DNA of 63,692 nucleotides, filler included, from Asterionella formosa (Eukaryota), in assembly GCA_002256025.1 (NCBI GenBank). It is 5 parts of 5 records of this genome, joined end to end, with 100 filler letters (N's around TTAATTAATTAA, not from the genome) between each part and the next. Parts side by side here need not be neighbours in the genome. Positions count along the whole stretch, not along the records: positions 51,038 to 63,692 come from NKIB01007311.1; 4 more parts are not named here. One strand, written 5' to 3'. The position numbers were made by a program, and so were the translations under genes. Positions 1 through 63,692 of the stretch are shown here, piece by piece. The notes below the pieces were generated by a model. It saw nothing but the letters and a program-made list of their open reading frames with translations. It was not told where the DNA came from and made no database searches. The first letter of the stretch is position 1, and every line of letters starts with the position of its first letter.

Positions 1-136
1 CCACTTTGATCGCCACCAGGCGCTTTGTTGACTTGGATTTGGCGAGAACAACAAGGGCAAATCCTCCTTTCCCTAAAATGCGGACAGGCTCGTATTCTTC
101 CTGCACTACAGGTGGCCAGTGCTCTGGGGCTTCCAT
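1..136 (-). CDS. Ser/Thr protein kinase, 5' end only (runs off window start)
   Basis: Manual translation from ATG at 136: MEAPEHWPPVVQEEYEPVRILGKGGFALVVLAKSKSTKRLVAIKV. Contains the Gly-rich loop (LGKGGFA) and the VAIK catalytic Lys motif of kinase subdomains I-II. Not in the ORF track. Confidence 0.85.
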   Translation of the reverse strand, partial: MEAPEHWPPVVQEEYEPVRILGKGGFALVVLAKSKSTKRLVAIKV

Positions 137-11768: not shown

Positions 11769-11887
11769 CTCTGGGTGGTATGAAATAATTCTTGTCTGTA
11801 ATACATCGAGCTTTCTCATGCAACGACAAGTTGTTGTTGTAACAACTACCGTATTCGACCGTATCGTAGGCCTTGAACCTAGTACTG

Positions 11888-16346: not shown

Positions 16347-17894
16347 ATGGGAAGTGACGAAGACACGTCAGTGAGGTTGCCGACGTTCGATGGGCAAGAT
16401 GCTAAATGGCACATGTGGAAAGCGAAGTTTTTCGCATAAGCGTGCTACAAGAACTTTCAAGGAATACTTAACGGTGAAGAAATTCCAAGAGGAGAGAAAG
16501 ACCTAAAGGGCGATACGATCGTGTTGTCGGATGCTGATGAGAGACGCATCCGAAGGAGCAACACAGTTGCTTACGCAAGTCTGATAATGGCATGCCAGAG
16601 TGGGCCATTTGGACAAGTAAATAATGCAAGAAATGCCGAGTTTCCTAACGGCATTGCTAAAGAAGCATGGGACAAGCTCATTTCTACGTATGAGTCAGGC
16701 AACATGGCGAATTTCATTGCCTTGACCCACCAATGGACGAAGTGCACTCTAGGGGAAAACGAGAACCCCGACAGCTGGTGTGTGGAGTTGGATCGTATCC
16801 GGGAACGATTGGGCTATACAAGCTCCGCCGTTTCGGATGGTGCCTATGTGGCACACATGATCAACAACATACCTGAAAACTACAAGAGTTTGGTAGTAGG
16901 AAGGTTCGGCCTGGTGCGCAACACGCAAACGGTCGAAGAGATTAAGACAGACATCCGGGACTACTACGATCTATATGTCCGGGATGACGTCAAAACGACT
17001 AACAAGAACAAGAGTGAACAGGCCTTCTACACAAAAGGGAAGTTCAAAGGTGACTGTCGTAAGTGTGGCAAGTATGGCCACAAGGCGGCTGAATGTCGCA
17101 GTAAGGGAAATAGTGCCGACAAGAAGGAGCTCACTCCTGAGCAGAAAGAAAAGAGGAAAACGATCAAGTGTTTCAAGTGCCAACGCATGGGACACTACGC
17201 AAGTGAGTGCACCAGTAACAGTGCATCTAAGAATAATAAAAACGAAGAAAACAACACGACTACATCTACCCTGCTTGTCTGCCAAGGTCAAAATTGGATG
17301 ACGATTGATAAAGCTTTCTATGCCTACAAAAAATCAATGTTCATCGCCACATGCGTCGAAATTAGTTACAACGAGGAAGTCAACCTTGTTCGTGACGTCA
17401 GAAATCGCTGGTTGTTAGACAGCGGTGCTACCGTTCACATCTGCATGGACGTGCGCATGATAGAAGACAAGAAACAAGTGAGTGAAACGGTCGTGGTAGG
17501 GAATGGAACCGAGATAGTATCAACTGTCTCTGGTACTGTGACCCTGATGACTACATACGAAGGATAACGCTTGAAACTCACCGATGTGCTTTATGCACCG
17601 GAGTTCAAGCAGAACATCATCAGTGTCTCTAGAATGATCTACAAGGGTTATCAAGTGATCTTCGAGGACGATAGGATGATGATACGAAACAAGAGCGGCA
17701 TTCTGACCTGCAAAAGAGACAAAACCTGAAAACTTGGAGCAATGTATCATGTCGAAGGTAATCCGATCATCAAGCAAACGGTGATGGAAATCGAGCAACT
17801 ACAAGAGAAAACTACACAACAATCGATCGACGACTATAACAATAACGATTGGACGAAAGATGAAGCAAAGAAAACGAACAAGGGAAAGAACAAA

Positions 17895-45878: not shown

Positions 45879-48800
45879 CTACTTTCCTTTGACTATAGTC
45901 GAGAAGTCGTATTCTCTTCTTACCTCCTCGAACGACAGCAGCAAAAGTTCCTCGAAAACCGGCCCAATGCATTGCCACATACCATCGACGCCAACGCAAA
46001 GTACTAATGCGCCGATGATTGACTTGAAAGAGAATGCCAGATCGGCCGTGATAAATTCTGGTAGCTTTCCTTTTTGATGACTGTACAATCGTCCTCCTCC
46101 AATGCCCGTGTACTTCGGTTCCGGGACTCTGTCTGAATTCAGCGTCCATCGCCTTTCGAATTCCTTGTTACCTCCATCGAGAATCCAGCCACCTAATGTG
46201 TCCCACTTCTGCCGTCCAATACTGTCAGAAAGCGCCATCTCTGTTTTGAATCTCGATATTGCGGGAGCCTTTTTGTCAAACAAGAAGACATCGAATCCAT
46301 TTTTTATGAATACATAAACCACGCAATCATCCGTCGAGGCAACAGCTCTAAGAACGTGAAGTCCGCCTTCTTGAACATCAGGATTACGTTCGAATAGTTG
46401 GTGCGTTATACACAGCTGCAATGCAGAGGCTCCAAGGAGCGCCAGAGTGTCCCTTGTCAGTCCTGCTCGAAATAATCCTTTTTCAAATGTGCTTTCAATA
46501 GACAACGCATCGTCAGATGCTTCGGTTTCCCTCGATAACGAGGGCCTCGTTCGCTCTAATGGAGGAATACTTGTTTCCTCGGAGTTCATTGTCGACCCAT
46601 TACTGAGTGACATGATTGAGGACCCTGAATCACTGTTGTCTGAAAGGCTTTCGTCGAATATCGAACATAAAAGCAAGATTTTCGACGCTTGAACGCTGAG
46701 AATCTCATGAAGGGATAGCTGACCAGAAAGTTCCACCAGTTTCTCCACTAACTTTGTGTATCCTTGAGTAAGTTCTAATATCATTTCGTCATTCGTGTAC
46801 AAGGCAGTTCCTACAGAAACAAGCTGTTTCTTCCAGGATTTATCAAGGTCAAATGGATATCCTGCTTTCATACAACATCCCATTGCTCTGAACCATGGCC
46901 ATCCCGACTCTTCAGTTTTGCACCTCTCTTTTGGAAGAGGCAACCGAAACTCATTCAAGAGTGCAATCGTCAAATTAGAATTATTCTCGTCTAATTTGTG
47001 CAGTCCATCCAGGAAAGCGATACCAAGTAGACTTTCAGCGACATCAGCCAAAGTTCGGTCTCGTAATTCCCGAATTTCTTCTATTTGCGATGACGATCCC
47101 ATTAAAAGCGAAAACTCTAATGTCGTTTTGACAGTTGTGTTGCTGATTGTTGCCGAAGACCGAAACGCACTTTTCCATTTGTCCGTATCCTGTCGCAGCA
47201 TTCGATTCACTCCAGTTCGTAGCGAAGCGTCGTATAGTGCAGAATTCCTCGCAGCAACAGAAAGTAGATTTGATAGCTCATCGAAGTCCCATTTCAGTTC
47301 TGCATTTCGAGCCATCAAGTTAAGCGCAAGGAAGTACCCAAGTACAGCATCACCTAAGAATTCAAGACGTTGGTATCTTTCCTTTGGGCTCAAAGTACAA
47401 GCCTCTTCCACAAGTCTGGGCAACGACCTTGGACTTCCACGCAGGGTGACCACCGGTAGGCGTGGCCGCTTGCTATGGGGGTAACACGTTGCCTTGCCCA
47501 GCTCATTCAACTGAAAAGCCCATTCTAGACTTTCCATCTTAAACTCAAGAGCACGCATGAACGATGACTCGTGTTTAAGAAGGAACAAGACGTCCTTCGG
47601 CATGGGATACACCATTACGGCCTCAGGGAATACGTTTTCGTAGTATTCCTTATTTGTATATTTAAAAGAATTGAAAGGGTCATGACTGGAAACCTTGGAA
47701 ACCTTGTAGAGCTGAAGCAAAGGCATCCTAACATGACGTATGAGATTCCCATCTCGTTTCAAGCTCCTCCCGACAAACGTTACAGTATTTGGGTCATAGT
47801 TCCACTTTTGTCTACAGAGATTTCTGTAATCATCATCGCAAGGCTTCGTGCGGCATCTCGATCTGCCAGTAATGCGGAATGATCGAAAGGGAACCGGTCG
47901 AGTTACAAAAAGCCTGCCTGTGGGAAACTTAAAGCGATTCTTCAAGAATCGGTTGGAAAGCTCATAATCGGTATAGTGGCAGGTTGGAGGCAAGAGATAG
48001 TAGCACAGATACGATACTATCGAAGAGACGAGCAAGATAAAATATGCATAAAGCTCCCAAGCAAAGGTACCTTTCTCGCTTCCTAGGAATGAATTCAGCA
48101 GCAAGTACCATCCAGCGAAAATACCTTTCATATCATTTGCTTTCCCGGCTTGTATATATTTATATCCAAGCACCACAAGCTCATGAAAATGTTCCCGTAA
48201 AAGCGTATTGCGTACACTTATGCCACGATTTGCCATACCGATTGTAAGAAACGACCAACTTAATAGTAACAACAAGACACTGAAAAAAAGCAAATCAACC
48301 TTCCCCAGCAAAGGAAGATTCCAATTTGCGTCAATAGCTTCGATGTAGGGCTTCAGTTGTTGAGTGCTTATATCACGAAGCGAGATCCAATCCACCTCCA
48401 ATGAGTCATTTTCAATCAAGGGAGCAAACATGTACGTTCGACCATCGAGAATTTGTTCGCTTGTGTCTAATTCATTGACTGACCGCAGGCCATACCTCTT
48501 CCAGTCCTGAATCTCTCGATTGAATCGAATCAAGTCCTGTAAACGATCTTTTGTTAATGGTGACGGCTGGTTTCCCCCACTCAATTGGATTCCCTTGGAC
48601 AGTCGAACCAAGGCGTTTGCTTGTTGCCCTGGTCCTTTCTGCTTCATGGCAAACTGCGCTTCGATATATCCATTCGCCAATACCGGAATTTCGGCACAGA
48701 ATATCACACCAAGAGGGGTGGGCTTCAAGACTCCACTTCTTGCTGTCACGAAATTTTGACCTTCACAATCGAAAAAATCCAAGCGATACAAATAAAGAAC

Positions 48801-50045
48801 GCTGCCACTTTCGATGTCTTGAGTGGTTTTTGAAACAATAGGTAGCGGAGATGTTGTCCAACTAGATAAGTAGGAAACATAGTTCGCTGTAGATGGATTG
48901 CAAGTCAGTATACCTTCTTTCTCGGTCTGCACCTGTCGCGGTGTCGATAGTTCAGCAGTGTAACTGGTATTACCAGTCTGTCTTCCAACTTCTTCCACTA
49001 AGAGCGCCACTGCATTTCCTAACGCATCTTTTTTGGTAGAAGAAGGATACCCAAAGACCTTGAGCTCTATCGGTTCATGGATAGTAATGATGCAACAGAG
49101 GCGCGTCGGTTCCCCTATCCGAAACGACCGATTCCCTACCTTCTCTTTGTATAAGATGGAAAGACTGTCATGCCTTACCCCAATTTTATGGCATTCATGT
49201 ACCCAGCTAGGAAATTTTCTTTCACTTGCAGGAAGAAAAGCTGATGTCGGCGCTGATTCACTCTCGACCTTTTTGGTGTCGCTTTTGTCAATTGAATCGC
49301 CTCTGATATCCTCAGGACTGATGGGCAGGAACAGTTTCTGGTCCTTCATATCAGCACCCAACATGCTGTGAGCTTCGAGAACAGCCACGGCAACGGCCCG
49401 CTTTGCGAATCTCTTTCCGCTGAACACCACCTGATGCTTCTGGACAATATACTCCCCAAAACACTTCTTCGTTAGTTCAACAAGCTTGTTTTCTTTCCTC
49501 TCTTGGAACATAGGTATCGGAAGGCTGGAGAAGTAAACGTTTTTAGTGATTGGACAATGAAATGAAAAATTAAAGAAGGAACGGCCAGCAATATTTTGAG
49601 GTGGCTCTTCCTTGAAGAAACCTTTTGGGTTCACTTTGAGCTTCTGCTGATAAAATTCGTTCAGATAAACCATTGGGTCTCTGCTGACAAATCTTTCGAG
49701 CACATCGATAGCAATGTTTGTCAATACATTTAGATCAATTTCGTCTTGACCCTCGTCAAACAAATCTTCCAGGTCCGACATAGAAGCTTCGAGAGTGTCA
49801 TCCGGAATAGGAACTTCGGTTTGATCTGAAATTTCAGACAACTGCTTCTGCACTTGAACGCTGCTAAAATGAATTGTAACTTTGGACATCACGGAACCCG
49901 ATCGAATGCCGTCCATGTTAACGTCGAACGAAGGCAAAAAGGACGTGATTTTCAATGGAACTGATGCGGAGCAGCCAATTGATTTGTTTACAAAAAGCTT
50001 ATGATAAGACACTTGCTGTGTTGCGACTGTGGACTTGCGGCCCAT
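45879..50045 (-). CDS. Dicer-like RNase III protein (dsRBD-like N-terminus, platform/PAZ-like region, RNase IIIa, degenerate RNase IIIb; no helicase)
   Basis: 1388-aa ORF. RNase III signature ERYQRLEFLGDAVL plus TLADVAESLLG; second copy RDTLALLGASALQL plus DLAFSFKSIIGAL. dsRBD-like DPMVYLNEFYQQK...KRFAKRAVAVAVL and STKKDALGNAV. Platform-like LYLYRL...YMFAPL...VDW. Confidence 0.85.
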   Translation of the reverse strand: MGRKSTVATQQVSYHKLFVNKSIGCSASVPLKITSFLPSFDVNMDGIRSGSVMSKVTIHFSSVQVQKQLSEISDQTEVPIPDDTLEASMSDLEDLFDEGQDEIDLNVLTNIAIDVLERFVSRDPMVYLNEFYQQKLKVNPKGFFKEEPPQNIAGRSFFNFSFHCPITKNVYFSSLPIPMFQERKENKLVELTKKCFGEYIVQKHQVVFSGKRFAKRAVAVAVLEAHSMLGADMKDQKLFLPISPEDIRGDSIDKSDTKKVESESAPTSAFLPASERKFPSWVHECHKIGVRHDSLSILYKEKVGNRSFRIGEPTRLCCIITIHEPIELKVFGYPSSTKKDALGNAVALLVEEVGRQTGNTSYTAELSTPRQVQTEKEGILTCNPSTANYVSYLSSWTTSPLPIVSKTTQDIESGSVLYLYRLDFFDCEGQNFVTARSGVLKPTPLGVIFCAEIPVLANGYIEAQFAMKQKGPGQQANALVRLSKGIQLSGGNQPSPLTKDRLQDLIRFNREIQDWKRYGLRSVNELDTSEQILDGRTYMFAPLIENDSLEVDWISLRDISTQQLKPYIEAIDANWNLPLLGKVDLLFFSVLLLLLSWSFLTIGMANRGISVRNTLLREHFHELVVLGYKYIQAGKANDMKGIFAGWYLLLNSFLGSEKGTFAWELYAYFILLVSSIVSYLCYYLLPPTCHYTDYELSNRFLKNRFKFPTGRLFVTRPVPFRSFRITGRSRCRTKPCDDDYRNLCRQKWNYDPNTVTFVGRSLKRDGNLIRHVRMPLLQLYKVSKVSSHDPFNSFKYTNKEYYENVFPEAVMVYPMPKDVLFLLKHESSFMRALEFKMESLEWAFQLNELGKATCYPHSKRPRLPVVTLRGSPRSLPRLVEEACTLSPKERYQRLEFLGDAVLGYFLALNLMARNAELKWDFDELSNLLSVAARNSALYDASLRTGVNRMLRQDTDKWKSAFRSSATISNTTVKTTLEFSLLMGSSSQIEEIRELRDRTLADVAESLLGIAFLDGLHKLDENNSNLTIALLNEFRLPLPKERCKTEESGWPWFRAMGCCMKAGYPFDLDKSWKKQLVSVGTALYTNDEMILELTQGYTKLVEKLVELSGQLSLHEILSVQASKILLLCSIFDESLSDNSDSGSSIMSLSNGSTMNSEETSIPPLERTRPSLSRETEASDDALSIESTFEKGLFRAGLTRDTLALLGASALQLCITHQLFERNPDVQEGGLHVLRAVASTDDCVVYVFIKNGFDVFLFDKKAPAISRFKTEMALSDSIGRQKWDTLGGWILDGGNKEFERRWTLNSDRVPEPKYTGIGGGRLYSHQKGKLPEFITADLAFSFKSIIGALVLCVGVDGMWQCIGPVFEELLLLSFEEVRREYDFSTIVKGK

Positions 50046-50937
50046 ATACTGCGGGGGGAAACATACAAACAGGCAGAGATGATGTCAGATGGTAAAACAC
50101 ACAAGCATGACCGAAAAATGATTTTTTTATCATGCACAATCATACAAATCATGCTCCATAAATACATAGATAGCTGTACAAACGTACACACCTATGTATG
50201 TCCACATCATAAACCAGACGCCAGAGGACGTTGCGGGATATGAATAAGACCAAAACTAATACGGGTAGACATACGAGAAAAACACAATAGCTAATTTGAT
50301 ATTCCGGTATAAAGTTCTCATTACCACAACGAGTTTTGGAGGTAAATATTCATACCGGTAAACCTCAATTCCGGTATTTTACCTGATGGTTCCAGTACTC
50401 TACGTATTTATATATACCGGTATATACTATGACATTTATTATCTTTAAGTTGTGTGCAACTAACGGCAGTTGTCAAGGGGCATAAGAAGAACAACTGCCA
50501 ATCATTTCTTGTTCATATTTTTATTTTTAAAAACATTCAATAAGCTTCTTTCTTCAAGAAATAGCCAACATTTGACCAGTAAAAGTTTCAAAAAGTTGAT
50601 TTAGGCAGAGAAGAAATCAGTATCATCCATGTATTCCCTTTTCTGTATTTAGTAACAATAAGGCCTTGGTATCAAAAACTTTCACAAGCAACGAATAACC
50701 TTAGGGATGACAAATGTATCCATTAGCATCATCATCACACCATTTATCAACCACCTTGGTATCACAAAGTCTCACAAGTGCATATAGCCCACAATCTGGG
50801 TGGATGGCATACGTATTCATTAACAGCATCAAAACACTTTTGACTTGTTGCTTGACTTGGTCAATGCATCCAACTGGTTCAAGCTCCTTCGTTTTGGAGC
50901 AGGATACTTTTCGGTCGCGACATCTTGTCTCTTGATC

Positions 50938-51037
50938 NNNNNNNNNNNNNNNNNNNNNNNNNNNNNNNNNNNNNNNNNNNNTTAATTAATTAANNNNNNN
51001 NNNNNNNNNNNNNNNNNNNNNNNNNNNNNNNNNNNNN
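50938..51037. other. Artificial contig linker
   Basis: N44-TTAATTAATTAA-N44. Confidence 0.97.
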
Positions 51038-52571
51038 TGGTTGAAATAACATGGAATCATGCATATTCAGTGGCCATACTGATCTGCAATGGTGCTTTGG
51101 TGCCAGTATAGAAAGATTCCGAGAACCCAATTTCTTCAGGTATATGGAATTCTTGTGGAAGATATCCTGTATCGGTGCATAACAATTCCAATCCTTTTCT
51201 GCATCCGGGGATGATGCAGTACTTATGGGCAAGGTGAAATACTTGATCATAATGTTCATCCAAACTTGCATCTTTTCCTGGATCACGGACTTGACATAAT
51301 CCATCATTTATAGCAAAAAGATAATGCACAAAATGATTGTCTTCCTCCTCATCTGATCTTTTGCAATACACAATTAGAACATAGTTACTTTTGTAATGAA
51401 GTGGATGACAATCACCTTTGTATATATATGGATTGATATTACCCTTTTCTGGGTTCTCATCCAGATCAAATATAGTATAACCTTTACATCACTTGGATGA
51501 AGTTCATGAATTATATAATGGATCATAGAGGTAATTGTTTCAAGGTCCCAATATGCAAGATCTTTAAAATTTGAAGATGATTTTTTGATGATACTACCTT
51601 TGACTCCATAAAGTACAGAGGCGTAATTGCATATTTCTTGTGGGGTACGTGTGTACAAATCTTTCCACAATTTTAGTTTTCCATGAGTTTTCGGCAAATT
51701 CAAGGAAAATGCCGTTTGCTTTGGCATATTAACTCTACACATTTCACATGCCGACTCTTCACAAAAGTAGCTAGCTGCCTTCTAGATTGTTTTTAATGAT
51801 TTTACAAAGAAATTCTTTTGCTTCCATGTATGATTTAAAAAAGATTCAATTTTGTGTTTCTGACTTTGTTCCCTATTCAGAGCATCAACTGCCTTAGCCA
51901 GCATCACATGCATCTCTGTCTGCATTGATCTTCTTGAATTCGAGTCTTGATCTAGCTCAGACTTTTTCTTGAATATCTTTTCTTTTAGAAATGCAATAGT
52001 TTCTCTGCTTTCATGATGTTCATCTTGATGTTCTGGACGGATAGTGAGATATGTTTCTTGGTTTTGCAACTTTTCAACCATTTCTACTTCTGAAGTGTTG
52101 TCTGCCATATTTCTGCCGATATTTTCATTCATCGCATGATTTTGTTCATCAAATGAATGAGAATCACTGAGTTCTTCTTCATTATCAGCGATTTTGGGAG
52201 AATGAGGAGGAAAATACGACAGTGGATGGTGGAACTGTGACTCTGTACGAATAGAGTCTTCATCCACGAAGACCAACTGTTTGGGTTTCCTCTTCGAAAG
52301 CAGGCCAATCTTTCCTTCTTTTCAATCTCAGCCACTATTGTATCGGCATACTTGCTTCATTATTATTATTTTCTGGAGTATTATGAATCTGTTTAAATTC
52401 ATTTGATCTTTGAGTGTATTCAAAGGAATCTTCGATTGATTTCATAACTTTCTTCATCTTCTTTTCCGAAAACATAATGTCGTGTAGTGTAAACAATGGA
52501 AGTAAGTCTCGTTTCTTGTTTGACTGATCCTTTCCAAGAAATCCGTTAAAAGCCGTTCGGAAAGTTGTCAA
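51038..52571 (-). pseudogene. Frameshifted, multicopy, probably transposon-borne ORF of unknown function
   Basis: Chain of same-strand ORFs (52335-52571, 51782-52276, 51374-51742, 51057-51371) that read as one interrupted protein. Its 5' part recurs at 15662-16187. Confidence 0.5.
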
Positions 52572-53374
52572 AGGCCCAGAAAACTATGATGTAAAAGAGT
52601 GGAAGGGAAACGCAGAGCTTTTCGCGGAGCTTATTGCAGCGCTTGTGGAGGTAGAACTGGTGTGATGGTAACCGAGTGTAGTAATTGTTGAACAGAGCAC
52701 AGTGTAATATGCATGTTCCGCCAGCGTAGTGTTTACACAATACACATGCCGGCATATATATAGCTAAAACAACGAAAAACGAAACGACAATGAACGTGTT
52801 GGCTGGTTGTTGAGGATACCGGTATGTGATATGCATCAATCCATCATGTCACAAATCATATTATAGTGATGTACATATCAACGCATCCGTATACTTAGAT
52901 CCTATCCACTGTATAATGCTATCATATTAACTGTTGACTTTAACTGTATACATTAAACGACAAACACATATATTAATTAACATACTTTATGTATGATTGC
53001 TTGATTTATATTCTGTGATGTATCGATAACACTTGCGTACATATTTTATTGAACTTTATTGTCATTGTACTATTTTTACATGATCATATTTTGATCAAAA
53101 TTATATCATATACATTTGATAAAGTCATCACAGTTTTATGATCAATGTGTCATAGCTATGTGATGTACTTTATTCATTATTACGTATCATACTTTGGTGA
53201 TGTATGCATCGATGTAACCCTATCATGATATCACATTATCATCCTATCAATCATGATGAGATGATTGGGAAGCAACTGTATTCTGCATCGTGCTACGGGG
53301 CATATTATTATATCACGCAATTTAGTAGCGAAGTCACTCCACCTGTAATGTACAAAAGTCGACAGTGCACATAC

Positions 53375-54283
53375 TCACACACTAATCAGGTTTGAGGAAA
53401 CGGACAGTGGTTCCAACGAGCGAATAATGATACCACAAGTACAAATTTTTCCAGCGTAAGAACCTGTCTCTCTATTGATGAGGATGACACGGACACCGAT
53501 TTTCCAGGAGCAAACCACAATGAAGAAACCCACTTGTCGCTCTATTGATGTTAACAAAGATGCGGACAAGTTCAACAGTGAATACAAGAACAACATACCA
53601 ATGAAAACAAGTCGACAGTGTGTGTACGCACACGCCAAGCAGGTTTGAGGCAACGGACAATTCCAACAATCAAATGACGATACAGATATCAAATTTTTCC
53701 TATGAGCAAACAACAATGAAAAGAGCCACTTGCTTTCGGTCTCTTGATGGTATCAAAGATGCGGACAAGCTCAATAGTTAATTCAAGTACAGTATGCCAA
53801 ATGCAGAAACGAGCGAGCGATATGAAAATGAAATGCATTTTAATCAGAATCATTCTATAACTATAGTAGCTATGTGGACAGTAGTCTGTTACGCACATTT
53901 TCATATCTCCTTCTATGCTGAATCTTAATAGTAGATGTAGTATCATGTGAGAATTGAAAATATCAACGAGAACAAGTAGAATGTGTTTGTTTACGGGTTG
54001 ATTGGCGAGATTGTCATGCTGAAGTGGACAAAACGGATATACTTTGTGCGCTGTGTACGGAAACATTATGAGTTTATTCAAAGGCGCTCTCGATATGGAA
54101 CATCTGATATGGTTAAAATGATCATACTTGCATATACATAAGATTACGAGTTCGAATGATTTCTTCTCTCCTGTAAACTCTTAATTGAATGATTATGAAC
54201 AAAGCAAGGTTCACTGCACATGACGATTACTCGAAGATATAAAGATCACTTGACCAACAAATTGAAGACGTTATCGCAAACAT
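53375..54283 (-). repeat. Dispersed ~0.9-kb repeat (inverted copy of 24155-25020)
   Basis: Reverse-complement match. Confidence 0.8.
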
Positions 54284-54756
54284 TCATTCCGCTTGTCATC
54301 GCTAGGACAGTATGTCGTTGTTGTTGCAAAAATCGGAGTGATGAGGGGCGGATGGAAATGACGAGCCAAATTACATTACTTGAACTGGTACATTATCCTA
54401 CCAAGAAATTCGAATACAGGAATCAAATAGAAACAATACTTATAATAAATAAATATATGTAGTCAAAAGGGTTACTATTTAAATTACAAAGGCATTTATC
54501 AAAATTATTAGATGATACAACGAAATGTTATAATCAGATGATCACAATCCTATGATGCATCATGGAAATATGATAGTTTTTTTGCAGACGATGACATTGT
54601 TTGCCAAAGAATATGTGCCGAAGGTCCAATTATGTTTCCAATCCAGAAGCCTAAAGCACATTAGAGACTGATACTGGTACTTGTTAAGCAAACTTTAGCT
54701 ACTGGTTGTTCTTATTTTTCTCTTGCCAACACAGCACTGCAACGACAGCAAATATC

Positions 54757-57006
54757 ATGGATCTGTGTGAAAATAACAATGACGAGGACAAATGTCAATT
54801 CTGTGGTACAGGTCATTTTAAATCAATTCGTGGTCATCACAGACACAGCCCTTCGTGTGGGCAACAGTATATGATTCAATCTCAGATTCAAGCATCGCAG
54901 ACATCATCAATGGTAGCTGCTTTGCCAAGAGATGGATGATACCACTCTCAAGAACCCCTTGCAAAATTCCTGAAACAATTGCCACCAGCCATTGTTTTCG
55001 TTCAAACAGTTGGTTTTGATGCCGATGACTATGATAATGGTTTATTCCTTGATAGTTTAGTAGATCATGATGCTGCTGCTATTAACAGTCCAATCATTCA
55101 AAACACAGAAATAAACGACGTTGTAAACCCTACCAACTTCCGATTTCGCCAAGAAGATCCAGGTACAGCCTACACACAAAAGGATGTTGTAAAAACGGAG
55201 CTACTTAGCATTTTACTTGTAAGTAGGTCACCATTATATCTTTATGATGTAATTCTGAAATGGCATGTCTCTTCTCAAATGGCAGGAATGACGATTTTAG
55301 AAGCTATTCCTCAATGTCAAAACACATATCTCAAAGATCTGTTAACCCAATTTTAGATGGACAACCAAAAGCCATGTGTCAAGGCAGTCACTCTCCTCTG
55401 TGGTAGAAGTGTTGGTGTTGTTTGCTTTTATTTTTTTGTTGCAATCAAGAGCTTACTTTCCAATCCCAGATTCATGCATCCCAATAAGAATGTTTCATTT
55501 GATTTTTCTGATCCCTGCAAGGCTCCACAACCATCTGATGTCCGTTCAGAATTACACACCAGGACTTGGTGGATTGATGCTTACAACTGCCTGCCTGTGC
55601 ATTCAACCCAATGATTTTCTCGCCCCTTTCATGTTTTTCATTGAAAGAACACACACTGTAGAAAATTCTAAATTCACCACAGAGCCAGTTTTGTTTTCTC
55701 TTGGGATTTTCTGTACAACTGTAAGGAACAAAGTCATTGCTTGGCGCCTCCTTGGTCTTATCCCAAAACTTGATGGTCAGAGTCTTGCAATGAACGAAAA
55801 TATGACTACCGACGATAAGTGCAAGGATTATCATACAATTTTGGCAATTATATTGTCGGGAGTTCAAGAGACTCAGAAATCTGGTGGCTTCAAGTATAAT
55901 TTCAATTTCCATCATGGCAAACAGCATAGCCTGGTTGTAAAGGTACCGGTCGGTTTAGTGCTTGGCGATGCGGAAGGATTGGACAATCAGTGTGGGAGGA
56001 TTAAATATTACCTGAAAACTTTTCGTCTCTGTTGGGAATGTGATTGTTCATACAACAGTTTAGATATACCATCAATTAAATGCTCTCCAGTAGGTCAAGT
56101 GGGTTGTGCTTCCCTATTAGGAATGAATGACAAAACACTACTAATGGATGCTGTGTTACAGCGTTTTATCACACCTTGCTGGTATGCGTTGGATTTTGGT
56201 GGAGATCCATTGGGAATCAATGGCCGCCATTGCCCTCCTGAAAAGGTTGCCTTCAATACATGAGGGAATGATGATGCATTATCTCATTCTTCTGTTCTCG
56301 GTAAAGTTTGGCACTGTTACCTCTGCTCAGGGGTTGAAAAATAGATCCGCTTTTGATACATTATTCATAAAAGTGTCAAAGATGATGCATCATCAAAGCG
56401 ATCGGAATATGCCAAGGTGCATTTTTCGTGTTGGATTCCATGGATGTTGTCCAAAGATTACAAGAAATGAAACCATTGGGGTAATGCTTGTTGCGTGTTT
56501 GGTAATGGCTACAGACGCCGGAATCAAGCTTTGCAAGGACAAGGTTGGAATGTCAATGCAGGAAATAAAAGACATCCAAATGATTTTCGAGGGCATGGGG
56601 GGGGGGTTCCTGGTTCAGCCAAGAAAGTTATGAAGTACATCGATTGATGGAAATTGAATGTCGATCCATTGTCAAGTACTAAACAAAATAAGACAAGATT
56701 TTCCCAAGAAAAACGACAGAGCAAGGCTGAAAAATGACAAAGTTTCACCAGCAGATGCATACTGTCCAAAATATCGAACGGTTTGGCAGTTTGCAAGTTT
56801 TCAATGGGGGACCAATGGAAAAGAATTTGAAATTCCTTTGCAAGTTACCAGCGAAAACATCTCAAAAACGACATCACCTAATGGACCTTCAATCTGGACA
56901 ACGAATTATCATAAACATTGCCATAGGTATTGCTTGTCGGGAATTTTTGGGAAGAGATTCTTTTGAATATGACAATACAGATTTTCTCACCAAGCACTGG
57001 AACTGA
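54757..57006 (+). pseudogene. Plavaka-like (CACTA-related) transposase, frameshifted
   Basis: N-terminal C..C...H....C zinc finger, PLYLYD.ILKW, IKSLLSNP, SELHT..WW, EPVLFSLGIF...R....AWR.LG.IP, YH..L..IL, VLGDAEG.D..CG, RLCWEC, QSDRNMPR, KFHQ..H...I.RFGS, K.PAK.SQKR. Confidence 0.75.
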
Positions 57007-58048
57007 TAGACTACCAAATACTATCCAACATACATGATCATAAATTTATAATATTGTATATTTGTGGGTGCAGGTCCTTCACCAGACCACAATACCAATT
57101 TTACTGAATCCATTTCTTCTTGATTCCAACATGGTTATATTGCATGATCACTTAGCTAGTAGTACTACCGTGCGTTATAGCAGTGATATTTGTCATGTTG
57201 TAAATTCTGTGACAGATCATCAGGCAAAATAATTTACCAACAAGCAACAATGGTGATCTCGAACAGCCTAACTGCATCCTGACTTGGGAAAATGATGATC
57301 ATTATTCCAGTCCCACTTCCTGAGAACACATATCGTGTTGTGGTTAAATGGAGACTTCGAGTACTGCTTGATAGGCACTGTGACCACACTCACCGTATTT
57401 TACTTCGGCATTTATTTCAAGGGCATGTCGACGACACTGTGAATGCGGACCTTGATAGTTTATTGGACATCATGTTTAGGAGATTTGAGTCAGTGAATTT
57501 GTCAACTTTCATTAAAAAAAAGGGTGGAAAGAAGATTGGATGGCATGCACTTGTTATTGATCATAGCAATGTCAAGTTTGCTAGAAGCTTTGTTGATGAG
57601 GTTTGCCCTTCGAACCAATGTGACCGCATTAAACATCTCAACATTTTCCTACCAAAAGTTGCAAACGCAATGAAAACTGTTCATTTGATTATTGATGATG
57701 ATTTCATGCTACAGATTGAAGGGACTCTATCATCTTCCAAGATATTTTTGTTGAAATTGGTCTTTCCTTCTGGACCAATTTTTCGGAACAAAAGATTTTC
57801 CTTTTCTTGACCTGGGCTTTAAAATTTTTTTGGGGCAACTCGGAAATGATGAGGCTAAGTGGTGGAGCTTTTTCTTTCAAGCCAAGAATGTTCCAGATCA
57901 GCTGCTGGTCTTTGTCTTTGGCATGCTCGCTAATAGTGAATTCAATCCATTCAATGGAGGCAAGACTCTCCTAGTATGCCTTGATTTGAATCATGAACCA
58001 ACAACAACTAACTGGACTGTATTGGAAATCTTGGTGGATCTTGGAACA

Positions 58049-58339
58049 GCTGATGCAGCCATAATATTCTTCCAGATAGAGGAACAGCTGAGAGGGTCCG
58101 AAGAACAGGATCGGCTGGAAATCTCCATTTATTATCATATCAAAACAAAAGTAGCGGCGTTTCAGCAGTCCAAGACAATATAAACGGTGTATTGTTTGCC
58201 ATGTTTACTGATGTCTCTTTAGCTTTTGCATGATGGTCACAATGGTTAGTCAATCTGGAGATATTCATCAACATTGTCAGAGGGAATAAAGCAAGTGTAA
58301 TGACATGATAGAATCTGCAACATGATAGAATCTGCATCC
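58049..58339 (+). repeat. ~290-bp direct repeat (second copy at 60060-60346)
   Basis: CAGCTGAGAGGGTCCGAAGAACAGGATC...GGGAATAAAGCAAGTGTAATGACATGATA...AGAATCTGCATCCA in both. Confidence 0.85.
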
Positions 58340-58398
58340 AACCGAAAGCTAAAAAAACCCAGCTCTACTAATGCTACCCAAACTTTTGTCTTCGTGCA

Positions 58399-58418
58399 CC
58401 TAACCCTAACCCTAACCC
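58399..58418 (+). repeat. Short interstitial telomere-like repeat, about three CCCTAA units
   Basis: CCTAACCCTAACCCTAACCC. Confidence 0.8.
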
Positions 58419-59144
58419 AGCCATAATGTACCTGGTACCGACCTCAATTCGTGATCCACATGTTCAATTCACATAATTCATCGTCATAGAGAGCAGGTGC
58501 GTTTATTTCCCGAAGAAATTCCAAGAACTGAAAAGGAAGCAAGTCTTCTCACTTTACTTTCACTTAGACGGAAGGCTTTTGTACCAACAGTTTGTCGGTC
58601 GGAGTCGAAATGTAAAAATTCTCAATCATTTCCGGAATTTTTCTTAGCGGAATACTATACCTGGGAGCTAAAATGACCCTCGGGTCATTTACTCTTTATA
58701 TTAATTAAATAGCTGTAGTATGTTTCATATGCCAGTATACTTCCACCTTTTGCTACTGTACATTATACCGAATTTTTTTAACGTCCCAGGTGGAGTAATA
58801 CCGGTCTACTTGTGCACTGGATAAATAGTGTAATTACTAGCTTGTAATTTTTCAAAATGTCTTCATCAGTCATGAAACGTTTTTATACAAGATCCATTTC
58901 GTACCTTAATTATTTTAAAAAAAATTGTGACTAGCAATATTGTTCCATATCATATAGTATACACATAAGCCCTTTCATCTCTATACATTTAATTATTTAG
59001 ATTGTGCATATAACGCAGAGCATAGGAAGAAAAAAATATATATACCGTTATAGTCGTTGGAAAGAAACCAGTGAGGTCTTGTAGTAATGAATAATATGTT
59101 TACATATATATGATGCCTACAGGTATTACATATAAGCCCTTTTA

Positions 59145-59249
59145 TCAAACCCTCCTTTAACGTACGGAGTAGTTAAAAGTCAAACCCTCCTTTAACGTAC
59201 GGAGTAGTTAAAAGTCAAACCCTCCTTTAACGTACGGAGTAGTTAAAAG
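59145..59249 (+). repeat. Perfect 35-bp tandem repeat x3
   Basis: (TCAAACCCTCCTTTAACGTACGGAGTAGTTAAAAG)3 with no spacers. Confidence 0.95.
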
Positions 59250-59495
59250 CATACATACCGATATATGCATGACAATCATCATCATGCATTGTAGATACCA
59301 GTACCGGTAGGTTAAAAAAACATTCTGGTAGCTATGCTCATCATCATGGCATAATAAATAGTTGTATATATGAGGATGAACAATATTTCCGGCATCTTCC
59401 TCACGACCGGCAACAAGAATGTTGCAGCTCAATCGATGAAAGATCTCCTTGCTGTTTACGCTGCTATGGCCAGTGGCAACAAGTCTCACAACGCT

Positions 59496-60051
59496 TGGTC
59501 ATGTGGACCATGACCTATGGTACAGTATGTACCACGCTAGAAATACTATATTAGATGGTATAAGTCCTATATAATGTTAACCTCATAGGCTCTTCTATAC
59601 AGACCATATACTTGTTTACTCTCAACAAAGAGATTTACGCAATACACACTGTGTATGTATACCACGTCAACCCTAATGAAAGGTGTACCCTTTCATATTA
59701 CGCACACGACTACCATGGTACCCATATGTAGTACACATACATGTACACGGGATTGATCATGATTAGCACGTGAAGCTATATACTAGCCCATAGTACATAT
59801 TGCATTATGTACCCGCAGGTATATATGCTACGAGATAACTATTGGTATATAGCTATGTACCTCTAGAATAGATGCACGCAAGAATGCTAGGCTAACATGA
59901 CACCTAGTAATATGGACTCTTGACGCCTAGCTAGTACGTACACTTCTCATTAAGGCCCTTGTGAGTCCCCTTACCGGTAACTTTGAGCTAATATAGATAC
60001 ACTAATCATTAAGCTCATAATTACCCAGAACCTACTTGTTAAATCCTGACA
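59496..60051 (+). repeat. Possible solo LTR
   Basis: Termini TGGTCA...ATCCTGACA match the LTR at 28303-28699. Flanks ACGCT/ACCGT are only a partial target-site duplication. Confidence 0.35.
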
Positions 60052-62036
60052 ACCGTAGGGCTGGTGCAGCCAATATGTTGTTCCAGATAAAGGACCAGCT
60101 GAGAGGGTCCGAAGAACAGGATCAGCTGGAAATCTTTATTTATAATCATAGCAAAACAAAAGTAGCGTCATTTCAGCAGTCCAAGTCAATATAAATGGAT
60201 GGGTGTATTGTTTGCCATGGTGTTTAATAATGTCTCTTTGGCTTATGCATGATGGTCACAATGGTTAGTCAATCTGGAGATATTCATCAACATTGTCAGA
60301 GGGAATAAAGCAAGTGTAATGACATGATACTAGAATCTGCATCCATCCTTTGAGTGGTCTCCCTTTGCTACTCTCCCAATTCTCTGCATCCCCTGCTGTG
60401 TTTATTAAATCTGAATCTGCTGAGGTTGGGATCACAACCCAGTGGATATCTGCAACAAAAGCTGCAACTTTCCCAATGATGATAGGCACACCAGTAATTG
60501 GCGACATCGCAGAAAATTGTTTGGCTGCGATTGTACTTCATCAAGCAAAAGTGGAAATGTGGAATCATTCTCATCCAATGAGGCAGTCCGCATTATTTCA
60601 AGTTGCTGAGGTTGGGCTTGTGCCATAAGATACCAGGGACTGGCACTACCCTGTTACCTCACACCACGTAATTTTATCATACCGGTAGGGAACAACATAT
60701 GCCCGTGGTGATGAAGGGGTACAACACAGCACAGGCGAATACCGGTATGCAGACTACATATGAATAGTCGTATTTGTGTGGTTTCAATGTGGTCATTGAC
60801 GATGATTTGTTAGGCCGCTTCTCACATCAGGCCATTCGATAATCGAGGTTCCTTTCTTGTGATAAGTTAGATTCAATGATCCCAACAAAGGTTCTTTCCA
60901 GAATCCATCAAGCATGCAAGCACTTGAGCAGCAGCGAGACCAAGATCAAGGTGACCAGCCATGCAAACATAGCTTAGTCTTGTCTAATAAATGAGGTTGC
61001 CTCCTTCAAGTCAGAAATAGTTTTCACTCGTCACTACATGTGGTCGTCCGATTCTGATGATGAATCGGGATTTGATTGTCCCTTACTCCTGGAAGTAGTG
61101 GCAGTAGCAATATTGGACGAGATCAACATGAGTGTATCTTGAATTTTTGAAAGGACTGAAGCTTTGCGAATTGGGCAGTCGTCCTGATCTAGTAGCATTT
61201 GAATCACTCGTCACCTGCGCTCCCATGGTGCAAGAATACTGCTTTGATTAGTGCTCCACAGTTGGCTGCTGATTGAGATCCTGCCACAGTGGCTGTGACA
61301 ATATTGAACTATCAACATCATCATCATCTTCTTAGGTCAACAATGTTGCTTGTTGGAAATTGTTCTGGGACAAGGGTTTCCTCTGCATCATGGTGGAAGA
61401 GAAGGTCGTAAATTTAGAGGAGAACTGTCCAATGCAGTCGTGTTGGTCTGGCTGGGCAGCTGAAATCCAACAATCAACCGAAATCCAATTTTCTAGAGGG
61501 ACAAACACAAACTCTCATCAATGAAGAAGTGTAGTAGATAAACTAGCTATGGTACCAGTAGCAAGTTTTTATTTATATAGTGTTTCTACTATTCTCCTGC
61601 TAGTAGCACAGCATAGCTGTTTCTAGACAAGTAGCAAAAACAACATCGTACTAATTAGCTACAAGTATCATTCTGGATGTTATTTTGCTCTTGGTGTAAA
61701 CAAACACTACCAGTAGCAATTCACATGGTGATGATTTCCCATGCTGAGTTATCAGGAGGAGGTCGTTCGGGGCATATAAAAGCAGGGGACACGAAAATTT
61801 GCTAAATCAGTCGACTATGAGAAAATAGTAGAGAAAGTAAAATAATCGCTCCAGTACTGTAAACAAAAAAGCTAGATGACGTTGCCGTAGTAGGCAACAT
61901 AAGGGATCAAAAATCCCATGTATCCATAAAACGAAAAGTGGTTCATGTGAATCTATCATCGTGTTCATCCTTCTCAAACATAAATGTATTGAGAACAGGC
62001 AAGGGGTTTTCCGTACATGAATTTGGAAGAACTGAA

Positions 62037-63692
62037 ATGGGAAGAAACAAGTCTCACGGGCATGGCAGCAACTACAATCACATCAAAAACAATATCGTCA
62101 ACAATCACCAGCCATTTCATATTGCCTTGGGTAAATCATATGACTCGGCAGAAGATGCACTCCGTAATGCCTTGTTGAAATTCCCATTTTCTGTGCCTAT
62201 CATTCCTTATGCAAACATCAAGACTCACAATATCAATAATCACAACCATTGGTGGCACATGGATATTGTCAATGCCATTAAACCTATGTATTACTTTAAT
62301 TTCAAAGAACCATTGAACGCACCAAGTTGGTGGTTTGGGATTGCACTAGATTGGGAATTGGATTGGGTATTTGCACCAACCGAAGTGGCATTTCAGAGAT
62401 TGATGGTTGGCAAATCAACAAATCATGCTCGTTGTGGAGCACTTAGAAACTTGGCTGTGAATGACAACAACGAGGTGACAATCGCTGAAGCAGGAGGTAT
62501 CATAACGATTCTGTCTGCAATGAAGACTCATTCCTCAAATGCTACTGTGCAAGAGTATGGTTGTGGAGCACTTGTGATCTTGGCTTTGAATGACAACAAC
62601 CAGGTGACGATTGCTGAAGCAGGAGGTATCACTACAATTCTGTCTGCAATGAAGACTCATTCCTCCAATGCTAATGTGCAAGAAAATGGTTGTTCAGCAC
62701 TTATGAACTTGGTTTTGAATGAAAACAACAGGGTGACAATTGCTGATGCAGGAGGTATCACTACGATTCTGTCTGCAAAGAAGACTCATTCCTCAAATGC
62801 TACTGTGCAAGAGTATGGTTGTTGGGCACTTTGGTACTTGGCTAATAATAATGACAAGAACAAGGTGACAATTGCTGATGCAGGAGGTATCACTACAATT
62901 CTGTCTGCAATGAAGACTCATTCCTCAAATGCTAATGTACAATATGAAGGTTGTGCTGCACTTAGGAACTTGGCTTATAATAATGACAAGAACCAAGTGA
63001 CGATTGCTGATGAAGGAGTTATCACTACAATTCTGTCTGCAATAAAGACTCATTCCTCAAATGCTACTGTGCAAGAAAGAGGTTGTGGAGCACTTTGGAA
63101 CTTGGCTTCGAATGGCAACTACAAGGTGACGATGGCTGATGCAGGAGGTATTACTACGATTCTGTCTGCAATGAAGTTTCATTCCTCAAATTCTATTGTA
63201 CAAGAAAAAGGTTGTGGAGCACTTATGCACTTGGCTGCAAATAATGACAACAACAGGGTGACGATATCCAATGCTGGTGGAAAAGCCGTAATTGAGTCTT
63301 CTATGCGAAATCACCCATCCAATACTGGTATTCAAGAATATGGTAATGGAACACTTAGCATATTGACCCAACATTGGACTAAGACAGAAACAGAATTGGA
63401 AAAATATGTCAAACGGTTGAAAGCGAATGATCCAAGTTTGACTGAACTTAATCTCAGTCATAATTTAATTGGTGATGACGGAGCCAAGGCCATTGCAGAG
63501 GCTCTCAAGGTCATTACTGTCTTGACTACACTTAATCTCCATGGTAATTCAATTGGTGATGACGGAGCCAAGGCCATTGCAGAGGCTCTCAAGGTCAATA
63601 CTGTCTTGACTACACTTTCTCTCAGTTATAATTCAATTGGTGCTGACGGAGCCAAGGCCATTGCAGAGGCTCTCAAGGTCAATACTGTCTTG
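62037..63692 (+). CDS. ARM-repeat plus RI-like (NLRC3-type) LRR protein, 3' end beyond the window
   Basis: Manual translation: frame open from 61863 to the window end, first ATG at 62037. About 7 ARM repeats (N.VTIA.AGGITTILSAMKTHSSNA.VQ..GC.AL..LA), then LKANDPSLTELNL and 28-aa LRRs (IGDDGAKAIAEALKVNTVLTTL.L..N). Absent from the ORF track because it has no stop codon in the window. Confidence 0.9.
   Translation, partial: MGRNKSHGHGSNYNHIKNNIVNNHQPFHIALGKSYDSAEDALRNALLKFPFSVPIIPYANIKTHNINNHNHWWHMDIVNAIKPMYYFNFKEPLNAPSWWFGIALDWELDWVFAPTEVAFQRLMVGKSTNHARCGALRNLAVNDNNEVTIAEAGGIITILSAMKTHSSNATVQEYGCGALVILALNDNNQVTIAEAGGITTILSAMKTHSSNANVQENGCSALMNLVLNENNRVTIADAGGITTILSAKKTHSSNATVQEYGCWALWYLANNNDKNKVTIADAGGITTILSAMKTHSSNANVQYEGCAALRNLAYNNDKNQVTIADEGVITTILSAIKTHSSNATVQERGCGALWNLASNGNYKVTMADAGGITTILSAMKFHSSNSIVQEKGCGALMHLAANNDNNRVTISNAGGKAVIESSMRNHPSNTGIQEYGNGTLSILTQHWTKTETELEKYVKRLKANDPSLTELNLSHNLIGDDGAKAIAEALKVITVLTTLNLHGNSIGDDGAKAIAEALKVNTVLTTLSLSYNSIGADGAKAIAEALKVNTVL
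62433..63365 (+). repeat. Coding tandem array of 129/132-nt ARM units
   Basis: Equivalent codons at 62433, 62562, 62691, 62820, 62952, 63084, 63213 and 63345. Confidence 0.92.
63438..63692 (+). repeat. Coding tandem array of 84-nt LRR units
   Basis: Units start at 63438, 63522, 63606 and 63690 and are nearly identical at DNA level. Confidence 0.92.

Follow-up and report, generated by a model that had tools for sequence, protein, structure and literature searches.

The closest described relatives in kind of the locus reported here are the repeat-based receptors of fungi and brown algae and the peptide-binding armadillo (ARM) proteins. Fungal NOD-like receptors (NLRs) carry arrays of WD40, ANK, TPR or HEAT repeats whose internal identity exceeds 85% across 100 residues or more; the binding face of these arrays is under positive selection and their number of repeats is polymorphic, and the receptors combine their domains in varied assortments with concerted evolution within and between family members (PMC4986451). 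Brown-algal LRR-ROCO proteins have leucine-rich repeats (LRRs) encoded by repetitive exons, joined to ROC-COR or NB-ARC domains and under positive selection on the concave face (PMC3341825), and the peptide pocket of importin-α has as its base helix 3 of the ARM repeat, in which Trp and Asn are conserved (PMC7522293). The locus compared with them lies in a 63,692-nt stretch of Asterionella formosa DNA (assembly GCA_002256025.1; hereafter the window) consisting of five joined parts with 100-N filler between the parts. Positions 51,038–63,692, from record NKIB01007311.1, include an open reading frame (ORF) encoding an ARM array followed by an LRR array of the ribonuclease inhibitor (RNI) type. 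The two arrays are real, and we consider it probable that they are diversifying binding cassettes of a large modular diatom gene family; the window copy is a recent mosaic of uncertain function.

The locus resembles the fungal arrays in having a scaffold that is homogeneous in DNA with a few hypervariable codons on the predicted binding surface, and the concerted evolution described there has a likely counterpart here in LRR scaffolds that are 94–98% alike within and across loci (PMC4986451). However, it combines ARM repeats with RNI-type LRRs, whereas the fungal survey reports no LRRs and makes no mention of armadillo repeats (PMC4986451); its units share 73% (ARM) and 82% (LRR) amino-acid identity rather than the 85% of the fungal definition, and its visible part contains no NACHT or NB-ARC domain. 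Because the identity is too low and no NOD is seen, the window locus is best regarded as working like the fungal arrays without being a member of that class; the first-pass annotation of this DNA had called the pattern a hallmark of fungal NLR arrays. The central NACHT or NB-ARC domain of NOD-like receptors and STAND proteins is likewise absent from the 585 visible residues.

Likenesses to the brown-algal LRR-ROCO and NB-ARC-TPR receptors include the stramenopile lineage, the involvement of concave-face residues, the shuffling of modules, and orphan cassettes that may act as a reservoir (PMC3341825). The window units differ in being contiguous in one frame, in the RNI type of the LRRs, in the presence of ARM repeats, and in the lack of any GTPase or NOD in the part seen; neither repetitive exons nor a ROC-COR or NB-ARC domain was found in the window. 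With designed and consensus ARM proteins (PDB 5AEI, 5MFC, 6S9O, 4RV1, 4HXT), which are its best matches, the locus shares idealised, near-identical repeats, and with the natural peptide-binding proteins Vac8 and importin-α it shares the helix-3 position of the residues concerned, which in importin-α is the base of the pocket (PMC7522293). Unlike importin-α, in which the Trp and Asn are kept, these positions vary from unit to unit here, and unlike both designed and natural ARM proteins the window array has no N-terminal cap. The literature searched yielded no list of designed-ARM contact residues. The LRR part shares with RNI-like LRR_6 proteins (NLRs, RanGAP, tropomodulin/CARMIL and axonemal proteins) the 28-residue LxxLxLxxN-helix unit and an alignable N-terminal cap, but units in those proteins are diverged, whereas here the scaffold is 98% identical in DNA and the differences fall nearly all on x codons. 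No description of hypervariable ARM arrays in diatoms or other protists was found among the papers listed in the literature searches, supplements and subscription journals being outside their scope.

The two arrays and their variable residues

A single open frame of 585 codons (61938..63692) runs stop-free to the end of the window, with its first in-frame ATG at 62037; the LRR array and the ORF both run into the window end, and the 3′ end lies beyond it. Labels of the form P#### denote protein homologues, L### loci on JGI metagenome contigs, and X# sequencing runs with their contigs. The features of the frame, with the methods that define them, are as follows (TRF, Tandem Repeats Finder).

61938..62060, + strand: 5′ extension of the ORF, unlike the gene family of 62061..62430 (ORF list, translation, alignment A1)
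62061..62430, + strand: in-frame fragment of an unrelated gene, 370 nt (HMMER, alignment A1, lake contigs)
62430..62431, + strand: breakpoint, phase 1 on both sides (contig ends, continuation of P0196 and P0198, start of the TRF array)
62431..63341, + strand: ARM array, seven units of 43–44 codons (TRF, Pfam, translation, AlphaFold2, Foldseek)
62430, 62559, 62688, 62817, 62949, 63081 and 63210, + strand: starts of the ARM units (translated units)
63342..63437, + strand: terminal part of the ARM solenoid with a remnant of one more helix 3, long linker helix and putative LRR N-terminal cap (translation, model)
63438..63692, + strand: RNI-type LRR array, three units of 84 nt and one codon of a fourth (TRF, Pfam, model)

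Tandem Repeats Finder places the ARM array at 62431–63236 (period 129, 6.2 copies, 84% matches) with a higher-order period of 261 over 62431–63262 (3.2 copies), and the LRR array at 63438–63692 (period 84, 3.0 copies, 91% matches). The Pfam families Arm (PF00514; 65.1 bits, cut-off 20.6), ARM_LRRK2 (78.6 bits, cut-off 26.2) and LRR_6 (PF13516; 60.8 bits, cut-off 23.4) all score well above threshold, the first two together with other ARM families on the first array and LRR_6 on the second, and the LRR units have the 28 residues and the LxxLxLxxN motif followed by a helix that are characteristic of the RNI type. A 47-nt ARM pattern has six matches, all in 62490–63187, and a 42-nt LRR pattern has three, all inside the LRR array; neither occurs elsewhere in the window, and the chance expectation is 0 for each. 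Among the 18 Pfam families detected (E ≤ 0.1) in the 585 visible residues, the 3′ part being outside the window, there is no NACHT, NB-ARC, TIR, death-fold or kinase domain.

An AlphaFold2 model built with 31 aligned sequences (pLDDT 87.8, pTM 0.81) has an ARM part at pLDDT 91–99 with repeating H1, H2 and H3 helices of 9, 11 and 14–15 residues, the arrangement of an ARM unit, followed by one long helix at residues 299–333, the first LRR strand, and an LRR part at pLDDT 53–73 in which strand and helix alternate. A single-sequence AlphaFold2 model beginning at 62037 (pLDDT 52.9, with the N-terminal part below 50) gives rough helix positions only. Engineered and consensus ARM proteins lead the Foldseek matches, with the engineered 4RV1 at rank 1 (E 2e-10) and designed armadillo binders, Vac8 (root-mean-square deviation 2.4 over 313 columns), importin-α, β-catenin and the ARM part of LRRK2 further down. 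In sequence comparisons Vac8 is the best solved match of the ARM part (E 2.3e-24), and designed ARM proteins follow (E 7e-19 to 1e-9). The LRR part most resembles axonemal LRR proteins, RNase inhibitor (E 7e-23), RanGAP1, NLRP LRRs and tropomodulin, with E-values from 5e-36 to 1e-10. The LRR domains of tropomodulin and leiomodin align from residue 6 of the 63342..63437 segment, and the sequence before the first LRR unit is read as a putative N-terminal cap. On its 3′ side the ARM array has a diverged last unit and an end helix.

The first six ARM units (U1–U6) are 84% identical in DNA overall, 50% identical at five variable codons and 89% identical elsewhere, with differences between units of 11–19%; at the protein level they share 73% identity on average (range 65–81%). 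The seventh (U7) is a diverged end unit with 64–67% DNA identity to the others. Hypervariable codons lie, counted from the start s of a unit, at s+6..8, s+15..20 and s+27..29 and at the last codon before the next start, that is, after V-Q-E, after G-C, twice after A-L, and after L-A. They are spaced i, i+3, i+6, i+7 and i+10, and all five fall in or just after helix 3 in both AlphaFold2 models. Of the 132 base columns across U1–U6, 43 are variable, and the 15 bases of these codons contribute 14 of them (hypergeometric p 3e-7, for codons picked after seeing the data). Variability along helix 3 is one-sided, with a moment of 0.562 at 100 degrees per residue that 26 of 20000 permutations reach. 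The second codon after A-L aligns with the canonical helix-3 Asn of Vac8, and the variable columns include the one four residues before this Asn in the same alignment; by the W-x-x-x-N spacing the codon after G-C would be the canonical Trp position. The variable ARM residues thus appear to share a single helix-3 face, the expected site of ligand contacts, and this placement is supported.

The LRR units vary at codons 3, 5, 7, 8 and 13 of each 28-codon unit and are 98% identical in DNA outside six codons, with a mean amino-acid identity of 82% over the 84 residues available. Eleven of 84 base columns vary. The x codons of LxxLxLxxN (codons 2, 3, 5, 7 and 8), a set fixed before the test, contain eight of them (p 1.9e-5). 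Every one of the 11 is a first or second codon position and none a third, so there is no silent difference among the window LRR units. The variable residues are therefore predicted at the β-strand x positions at which ligand contacts are expected, a placement that is again supported.

These results bear out much of what the first-pass annotation had observed. The two tandem arrays are real by repeat detection, Pfam, pattern searches and fold; the residues it listed at four ARM sites match the translated units exactly, as do its LRR strand segments, to which it had assigned most of the LRR variation (8 of the 11 variable bases are in x codons); and its placement of the variable sites on binding faces agrees with the helix-3 face (26 of 20000 permutations) and the LRR x positions. 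The strong variation it saw at particular ARM sites holds, although its description of the ARM units as nearly identical in DNA was overstated, given 89% identity in the scaffold and 64–67% for U7; for the LRR units, at 98% outside six codons, these words would be correct.

Scaffold homogeneity, proposed selection and modularity across the family

Replacement (dN) and silent (dS) differences were compared in a pooled DNA set of 13 ARM and 20 LRR units from the window and from related low-GC contigs; the local dN/dS ratios at contact codons rest on 2–3 silent sites.

LRR x codons: replacement differences per site 0.47; dN 0.75; dS 0.71; local dN/dS 1.05
LRR scaffold: replacement differences per site 0.10; dN 0.11; dS 0.20; local dN/dS 0.57
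ARM stripe codons: replacement differences per site 0.46; dN 0.71; dS 0.44; local dN/dS 1.6
ARM scaffold: replacement differences per site 0.165; dN 0.19; dS 0.22; local dN/dS 0.86

Silent differences per site in the scaffold are 0.17–0.19, and dN at contact sites is 3–4 times the scaffold dS. In the dN/dS check that the first-pass annotation had proposed, contact dN (0.71–0.75) exceeds scaffold dS (0.20–0.22), but the local ratios of 1.05–1.6 are not decisive. LRR scaffolds are 94–95% identical between the window and either L001 or L005, so homogeneity reaches beyond one locus.

The same columns vary in more distant relatives. ARM homologue searches gave 84 matches to proteins of similar length and 111 to longer ones; protist homologues of the ARM part are numerous (23–74% identity), many of the weaker long matches are plant CSI-type ARM or LRR-only proteins, and no protein identical to the window ORF is among the results. 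Units were cut from all 195 matches with a profile based on the window coordinates, and 12 proteins with at least four full units and at least 55% identity between units form a homogeneous set. The most variable columns of this set are the first after A-L (1.62 bits) and that after V-Q-E (1.61), followed by the position two residues ahead of V-Q (1.37), a column in helix 1 (1.28) and the position after G-C (1.27). Its variability profile correlates with that of the window (Spearman 0.43, p 0.004), and that of 15 less homogeneous proteins gives a rank correlation of 0.29 (p 0.06). Since matching columns vary in other protists, one-sided helix-3 variability is a family trait and not a peculiarity of this locus.

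ARM repeats and RNI-type LRRs are common structural adaptors, as the solved matches Vac8, axonemal LRR proteins, RanGAP and tropomodulin illustrate, and the variation could on this account reflect a loosening of constraint where residues of recently duplicated scaffold or adaptor repeats are exposed, with neither selection for diversity nor a recognition repertoire; the local dN/dS near 1 at the LRR x codons and the 261-nt higher-order period, indicative of recent block duplication, would fit. We think this improbable. Relaxed constraint predicts replacement divergence no greater than silent divergence, but about 0.7 is observed against 0.2; none of the 11 variable LRR bases in the window is silent, and the columns that vary are the same in distant protists with different scaffolds. 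Canonical ARM proteins, moreover, keep the helix-3 Asn and Trp that vary here, as does importin-α (PMC7522293).

The explanation we prefer is that the stretch carries a copy of two cassettes, one ARM and one RNI-type LRR, from a large, transcribed and modular gene family of a freshwater diatom. Both would be protein- or peptide-binding solenoids, in which each ARM helix 3 would present four to five variable residues to the groove and each LRR β-strand four to five to the concave face. Recombination or gene conversion among units and paralogues would keep the rest of each unit near-constant, and diversity at contact codons would be retained by selection, so that different arrays may bind different targets; the family would couple these arrays to different partner domains.

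Several relatives have the cassettes in other contexts. When the last ARM unit and the LRR part were compared as a query with JGI metagenome contigs, 519 stretches matched, of which 203 encode relatives and 80 were kept, and six of these 80 have a GC content of 38–42%, like the window. L001 has an unrelated N-terminal part, an LRR array (six profile-aligned units and a diverged last unit), a short tail and a stop. L002 (1–2115 of a low-GC freshwater metagenome contig) has the reverse domain order, with approximately nine LRR units first and then, without a change of frame, seven or more ARM units; its in-frame stops TGA (1126–1128) and TAA (1615–1617) both fall at variable columns (the first after A-L and two before V-Q, respectively), and it is likely a pseudogene belonging to this family. 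In P0006 the ARM scaffold is the same and leads into the apparent start of a kinase domain, as read from the sequence, with only ARM families in its precomputed Pfam list. Judged from these sequences, ARM and LRR cassettes are reshuffled among genes, because the order is LRR-ARM in L002, another domain and LRR in L001, and ARM and an apparent kinase start in P0006.

Among ARM-bearing homologues, kinase families are listed in 4 of the 84 and 14 of the 111 matches, others list U-box, F-box, BTB and further families, and NACHT (PF05729) is listed in precomputed Pfam for no ARM-bearing match among them; six LRR-only matches have NACHT. Same-type ARM arrays are listed with PF01129, PF13271 (DUF4062 in one source) and PF00656 in P0001, P0009 and P0015; these are presumably an ADP-ribosyltransferase, a TIR-like domain and a caspase-like peptidase, and such output domains would suit conflict systems. 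The other 74 of the 80 JGI loci (within L003–L079) have 58–68% GC, belong to a different organism, and come from culture or mixed-culture metagenomes. Their LRR units are 57–79% identical to the window units, and among 13 long GC-rich ORFs tested LRR_6 occurs with NACHT in three, with ankyrin repeats in four and with BRCT in one.

The stretch occurs in freshwater and lake metagenomes and metatranscriptomes of 13 studies by a sampled-word search, and one 'algae metagenome' also contains it (0.69 of the sampled words). Contigs from four lake runs, X1 and X6 (both labelled 'DNA?'), X8 (RNA) and X11 (polyA RNA), were placed on the window at a likeness of at least 90% (80842, 1126, 12255 and 9074 contigs, respectively); nearly all are on the two arrays, and about half fit two places in the stretch. 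The summed depths, which mix paralogues and perhaps other organisms, rise sharply from the last unique bin to the ARM and LRR bins.

X1: last unique bin 626; ARM and LRR bins 9e4 to 2.5e6
X6: last unique bin 36; ARM and LRR bins 244 to 34400
X8 (RNA): last unique bin 9.7; ARM and LRR bins 3e4 to 2.2e6

There is thus a very large set of near-identical units in both DNA and RNA. The RNA runs have zero depth over 61356–61997, where X6 has 31–111, so DNA carry-over is not the source of the RNA signal. X8 RNA contigs cover the ARM-LRR linker (63263–63395) with 4–7 mismatches, and the order ARM then LRR therefore occurs in RNA contigs, presumably of paralogues.

A wider reading, which we put forward tentatively and regard as unlikely in its full extent, is that diatoms, and with them several further protist lineages, possess a cassette-based recognition repertoire. 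Near-identical ARM and RNI-type LRR units, hundreds to thousands in number, would make it up. Selection would keep their groove and concave-face residues diverse, and recombination would both homogenize the scaffold and move arrays between genes with different outputs, such as kinase, U-box, F-box, caspase-like or ADP-ribosyltransferase domains; truncated or stop-bearing copies, such as the window locus and L002, would be a donor reservoir. If true, ARM repeats would represent a previously unrecognized class of sensor array that occurs in nature, is modular and reads peptides; they would parallel the designed armadillo binders and be a protist analogue of fungal NLR arrays and lamprey variable lymphocyte receptor (VLR) cassettes.

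The joint between the ARM array and a donor gene fragment

The ARM array does not begin in the manner of a capped ARM domain. Its first unit opens with only the C-terminal two thirds of helix 3, and the array, which has no N-terminal capping repeat, starts mid-helix after unrelated sequence; this abrupt mid-repeat start at 62431 was absent from the first-pass annotation. An exhaustive HMMER search with the residues encoded by 62037–62441 found 14 proteins at E ≤ 0.001, including P0196 (133 residues; 96% identical over 102), P0198 (86% identical over the matched stretch) and P0197 (56% identical, matched at residues 154–242 of 702). Seven of the proteins (P0197, P0199, P0202, P0203, P0205, P0206 and P0208; 594–717 residues) have a common N-domain followed by a large domain without a Pfam family. 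Twelve of the 14 have no Pfam family at all, P0202 has a weak GH127-like match below the cut-off, and P0207, a bacterial cadherin-like giant, is unrelated. The Atlas clusters nearest to P0197 are GH88-like or unnamed bacterial ones (0.90–0.91), which is a fold lead only. The donor family is probably membrane-anchored with a likeness to α/α-barrels; its full-length members, of roughly 600–720 residues, have a hydrophobic N-segment, an N-domain and a C-terminal barrel-like domain. Of these the window has part of the N-domain, corresponding to residues 154–242 of P0197, and it lacks both anchor and barrel.

In alignment A1 the window matches the donor family only from approximately residue 55 to 164, past which P0196 and P0198 carry on with the family's own sequence and the window continues with ARM repeats. 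The lake contigs agree with this. A 3313-nt X6 DNA contig matches 62061–62430 with two mismatches in 370 and is unlike the window on both sides, and its two substitutions, at 62158 and 62346, correspond to the two residues at which P0196 differs. The match of a 520-nt X8 RNA contig ends at 62430 and that of a 151-nt X11 RNA contig starts at 62061; to the left of 62061 the lake contigs, DNA and RNA alike, no longer match the window, and contigs that match from 62431 onwards have ARM-type sequence to the left. The joint itself unites the last base of a donor codon with the last two bases of an ARM codon, in frame. The window copy is therefore a recent mosaic in which a 5′-truncated array continues, in frame, a piece of an unrelated gene, probably for a membrane protein.

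Two further origins were considered and set aside. An intron at the joint, suggested by a GT after 62430 in a phase-1 donor codon, was rejected as the main interpretation because the ARM frame stays in phase for at least 1260 nt, there is no AG at 62061, and the lake DNA contig diverges at both boundaries. A viral origin was also rejected: seven IMG/VR stretches matched the pattern and one encodes a relative (32% identity over 67 residues).

An assembler working in a repeat-rich region might instead have made the 62430/62431 joint, or determined how many repeats there are and in what order. The window end cuts the LRR array, as is typical of short-read assemblies, a distance of 370 nt separates two structural breakpoints, none of the contigs listed spans more than about one unit, and there is a run of N near 50.7–51.3 kb (approximately 50700–51300, X in the translated frames), which overlaps the filler before position 51,038. 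Against this, an unbranched 222-nt X1 contig spans the joint (62238–62459) with 0 mismatches at a depth of 626, compared with 518 in the adjoining unique contig, and the ARM units differ by 11–19% in DNA, enough for unique placement. An artefact is thus very unlikely, and we take the joint as real in the X1 sample. Among the contigs listed there is no RNA contig across 62430/62431 and none bridging 62057/62061, which is a gap in cover and not evidence. X1 also contains a contig with a 2-nt insertion at 62158 (depth 1063 of 1582), and hence a second, frame-shifted copy of the gene fragment; the summed depth of X1 over 60500–61997 is 4e3–5.6e4, compared with 626 in the unique bin 62319–62425, so the DNA upstream of 62057 is multi-copy.

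The mosaic structure bears directly on whether the ORF is an intact gene for an intracellular receptor, whose two arrays would sense non-self and signal defence and whose N-terminal region would have been gained by domain shuffling. The 585 uninterrupted codons with an in-frame ATG at 62037, the variable residues at contact positions, the free swapping of partner domains in the family, and the joining of same-type LRRs to NACHT (3 of 13 high-GC ORFs, and six LRR-only matches) are compatible with such a gene. We nevertheless doubt it: the N-terminal part is approximately 110 residues of a protein of about 700, without the predicted anchor or barrel, the array begins mid-helix with no N-terminal cap, and the donor gene runs on normally in lake DNA, in lake RNA and in P0196. 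The visible part also has no NOD, TIR, death-fold or kinase domain, and no ARM-bearing match lists NACHT. We prefer to see the window copy as the probable product of a recent rearrangement that may be non-functional, and lean towards the chimeric frame being a decaying by-product of family turnover rather than a working new gene. The first-pass annotation had inferred a modular receptor with two reshufflable arrays; the reshuffling is borne out by L001, L002 and P0006, but in place of a clean two-array receptor gene there is a fusion with a gene fragment, so that its observations stand and its interpretation is supported in part. Because the ORF is a recent fusion of this kind, annotation as a receptor should wait for evidence from transcripts and long reads.

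Several points weigh against the explanation we prefer. For the window ARM units, a concentration test that allows for the choice of codons is marginal, with 6167 of 100000 random draws reaching the observed value; the model came without coordinates, and the groove-facing assignment was made from helix periodicity and the Vac8 alignment; and the equivalence to the importin-α Trp and Asn is in part assumed. Local dN/dS at contact codons is only 1.05 (LRR) and 1.6 (ARM), on the few silent sites mentioned above, and the units are related by recombination, which inflates such tests, while the codon model used is not recombination-aware. Summed depths that mix paralogues or other organisms give no copy number. 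The joint is bridged, among the contigs listed, by one X1 contig that extends 29 letters past it (below the 31-letter rule), X1 may be the sample from which the window was assembled, and an in-frame fusion has a chance expectation of one in three.

The interest of the locus lies in the family-wide phenomenon and not in the truncated chimeric copy in the window. Defence and partner recognition in diatoms are poorly understood at the molecular level, and a large transcribed family of this type would supply candidate genes for interactions of diatoms with chytrids, viruses and bacteria. Armadillo repeats would also join the few repeat types known to be homogenized and diversified in this way, and the same helix-3 pattern in the arrays of other protists suggests a wider, undescribed phenomenon.

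Other features of the window

Upstream of the ORF, a direct repeat of approximately 270 nt occurs at 58049–58310 and 60060–60329 (88–96% identical, 2 kb apart) and could represent the terminal repeats of a small element. The region 60629–61034 is matched by RNA contigs of 685 and 771 nt from both lake metatranscriptomes (13 mismatches, 12 gaps) and looks like an unannotated transcribed unit.

Two ordinary nuclear genes without visible introns lie further to the left. The first (43616–45820, + strand) encodes the NatC subunit NAA35/Mak10 (TPR_NAA35, E 4.5e-61); its named relatives are all from diatoms (35–42% identity), which places the window in this group, and unnamed metagenome proteins are 100%, 69% and 67% identical. 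Together with the freshwater and lake runs that contain the stretch, this indicates a freshwater diatom for which the database has no near relative under a name. The second (45879–50045, − strand) encodes a 1388-residue Dicer-like protein with RNase III domains. Pieces of copia-type retroelements are present at 8438–12581 (− strand), 16521–17567 (+ strand) and 25550–28231 (+ strand), with RVT_2, integrase core, Pol β-barrel, gag and zinc knuckle domains.

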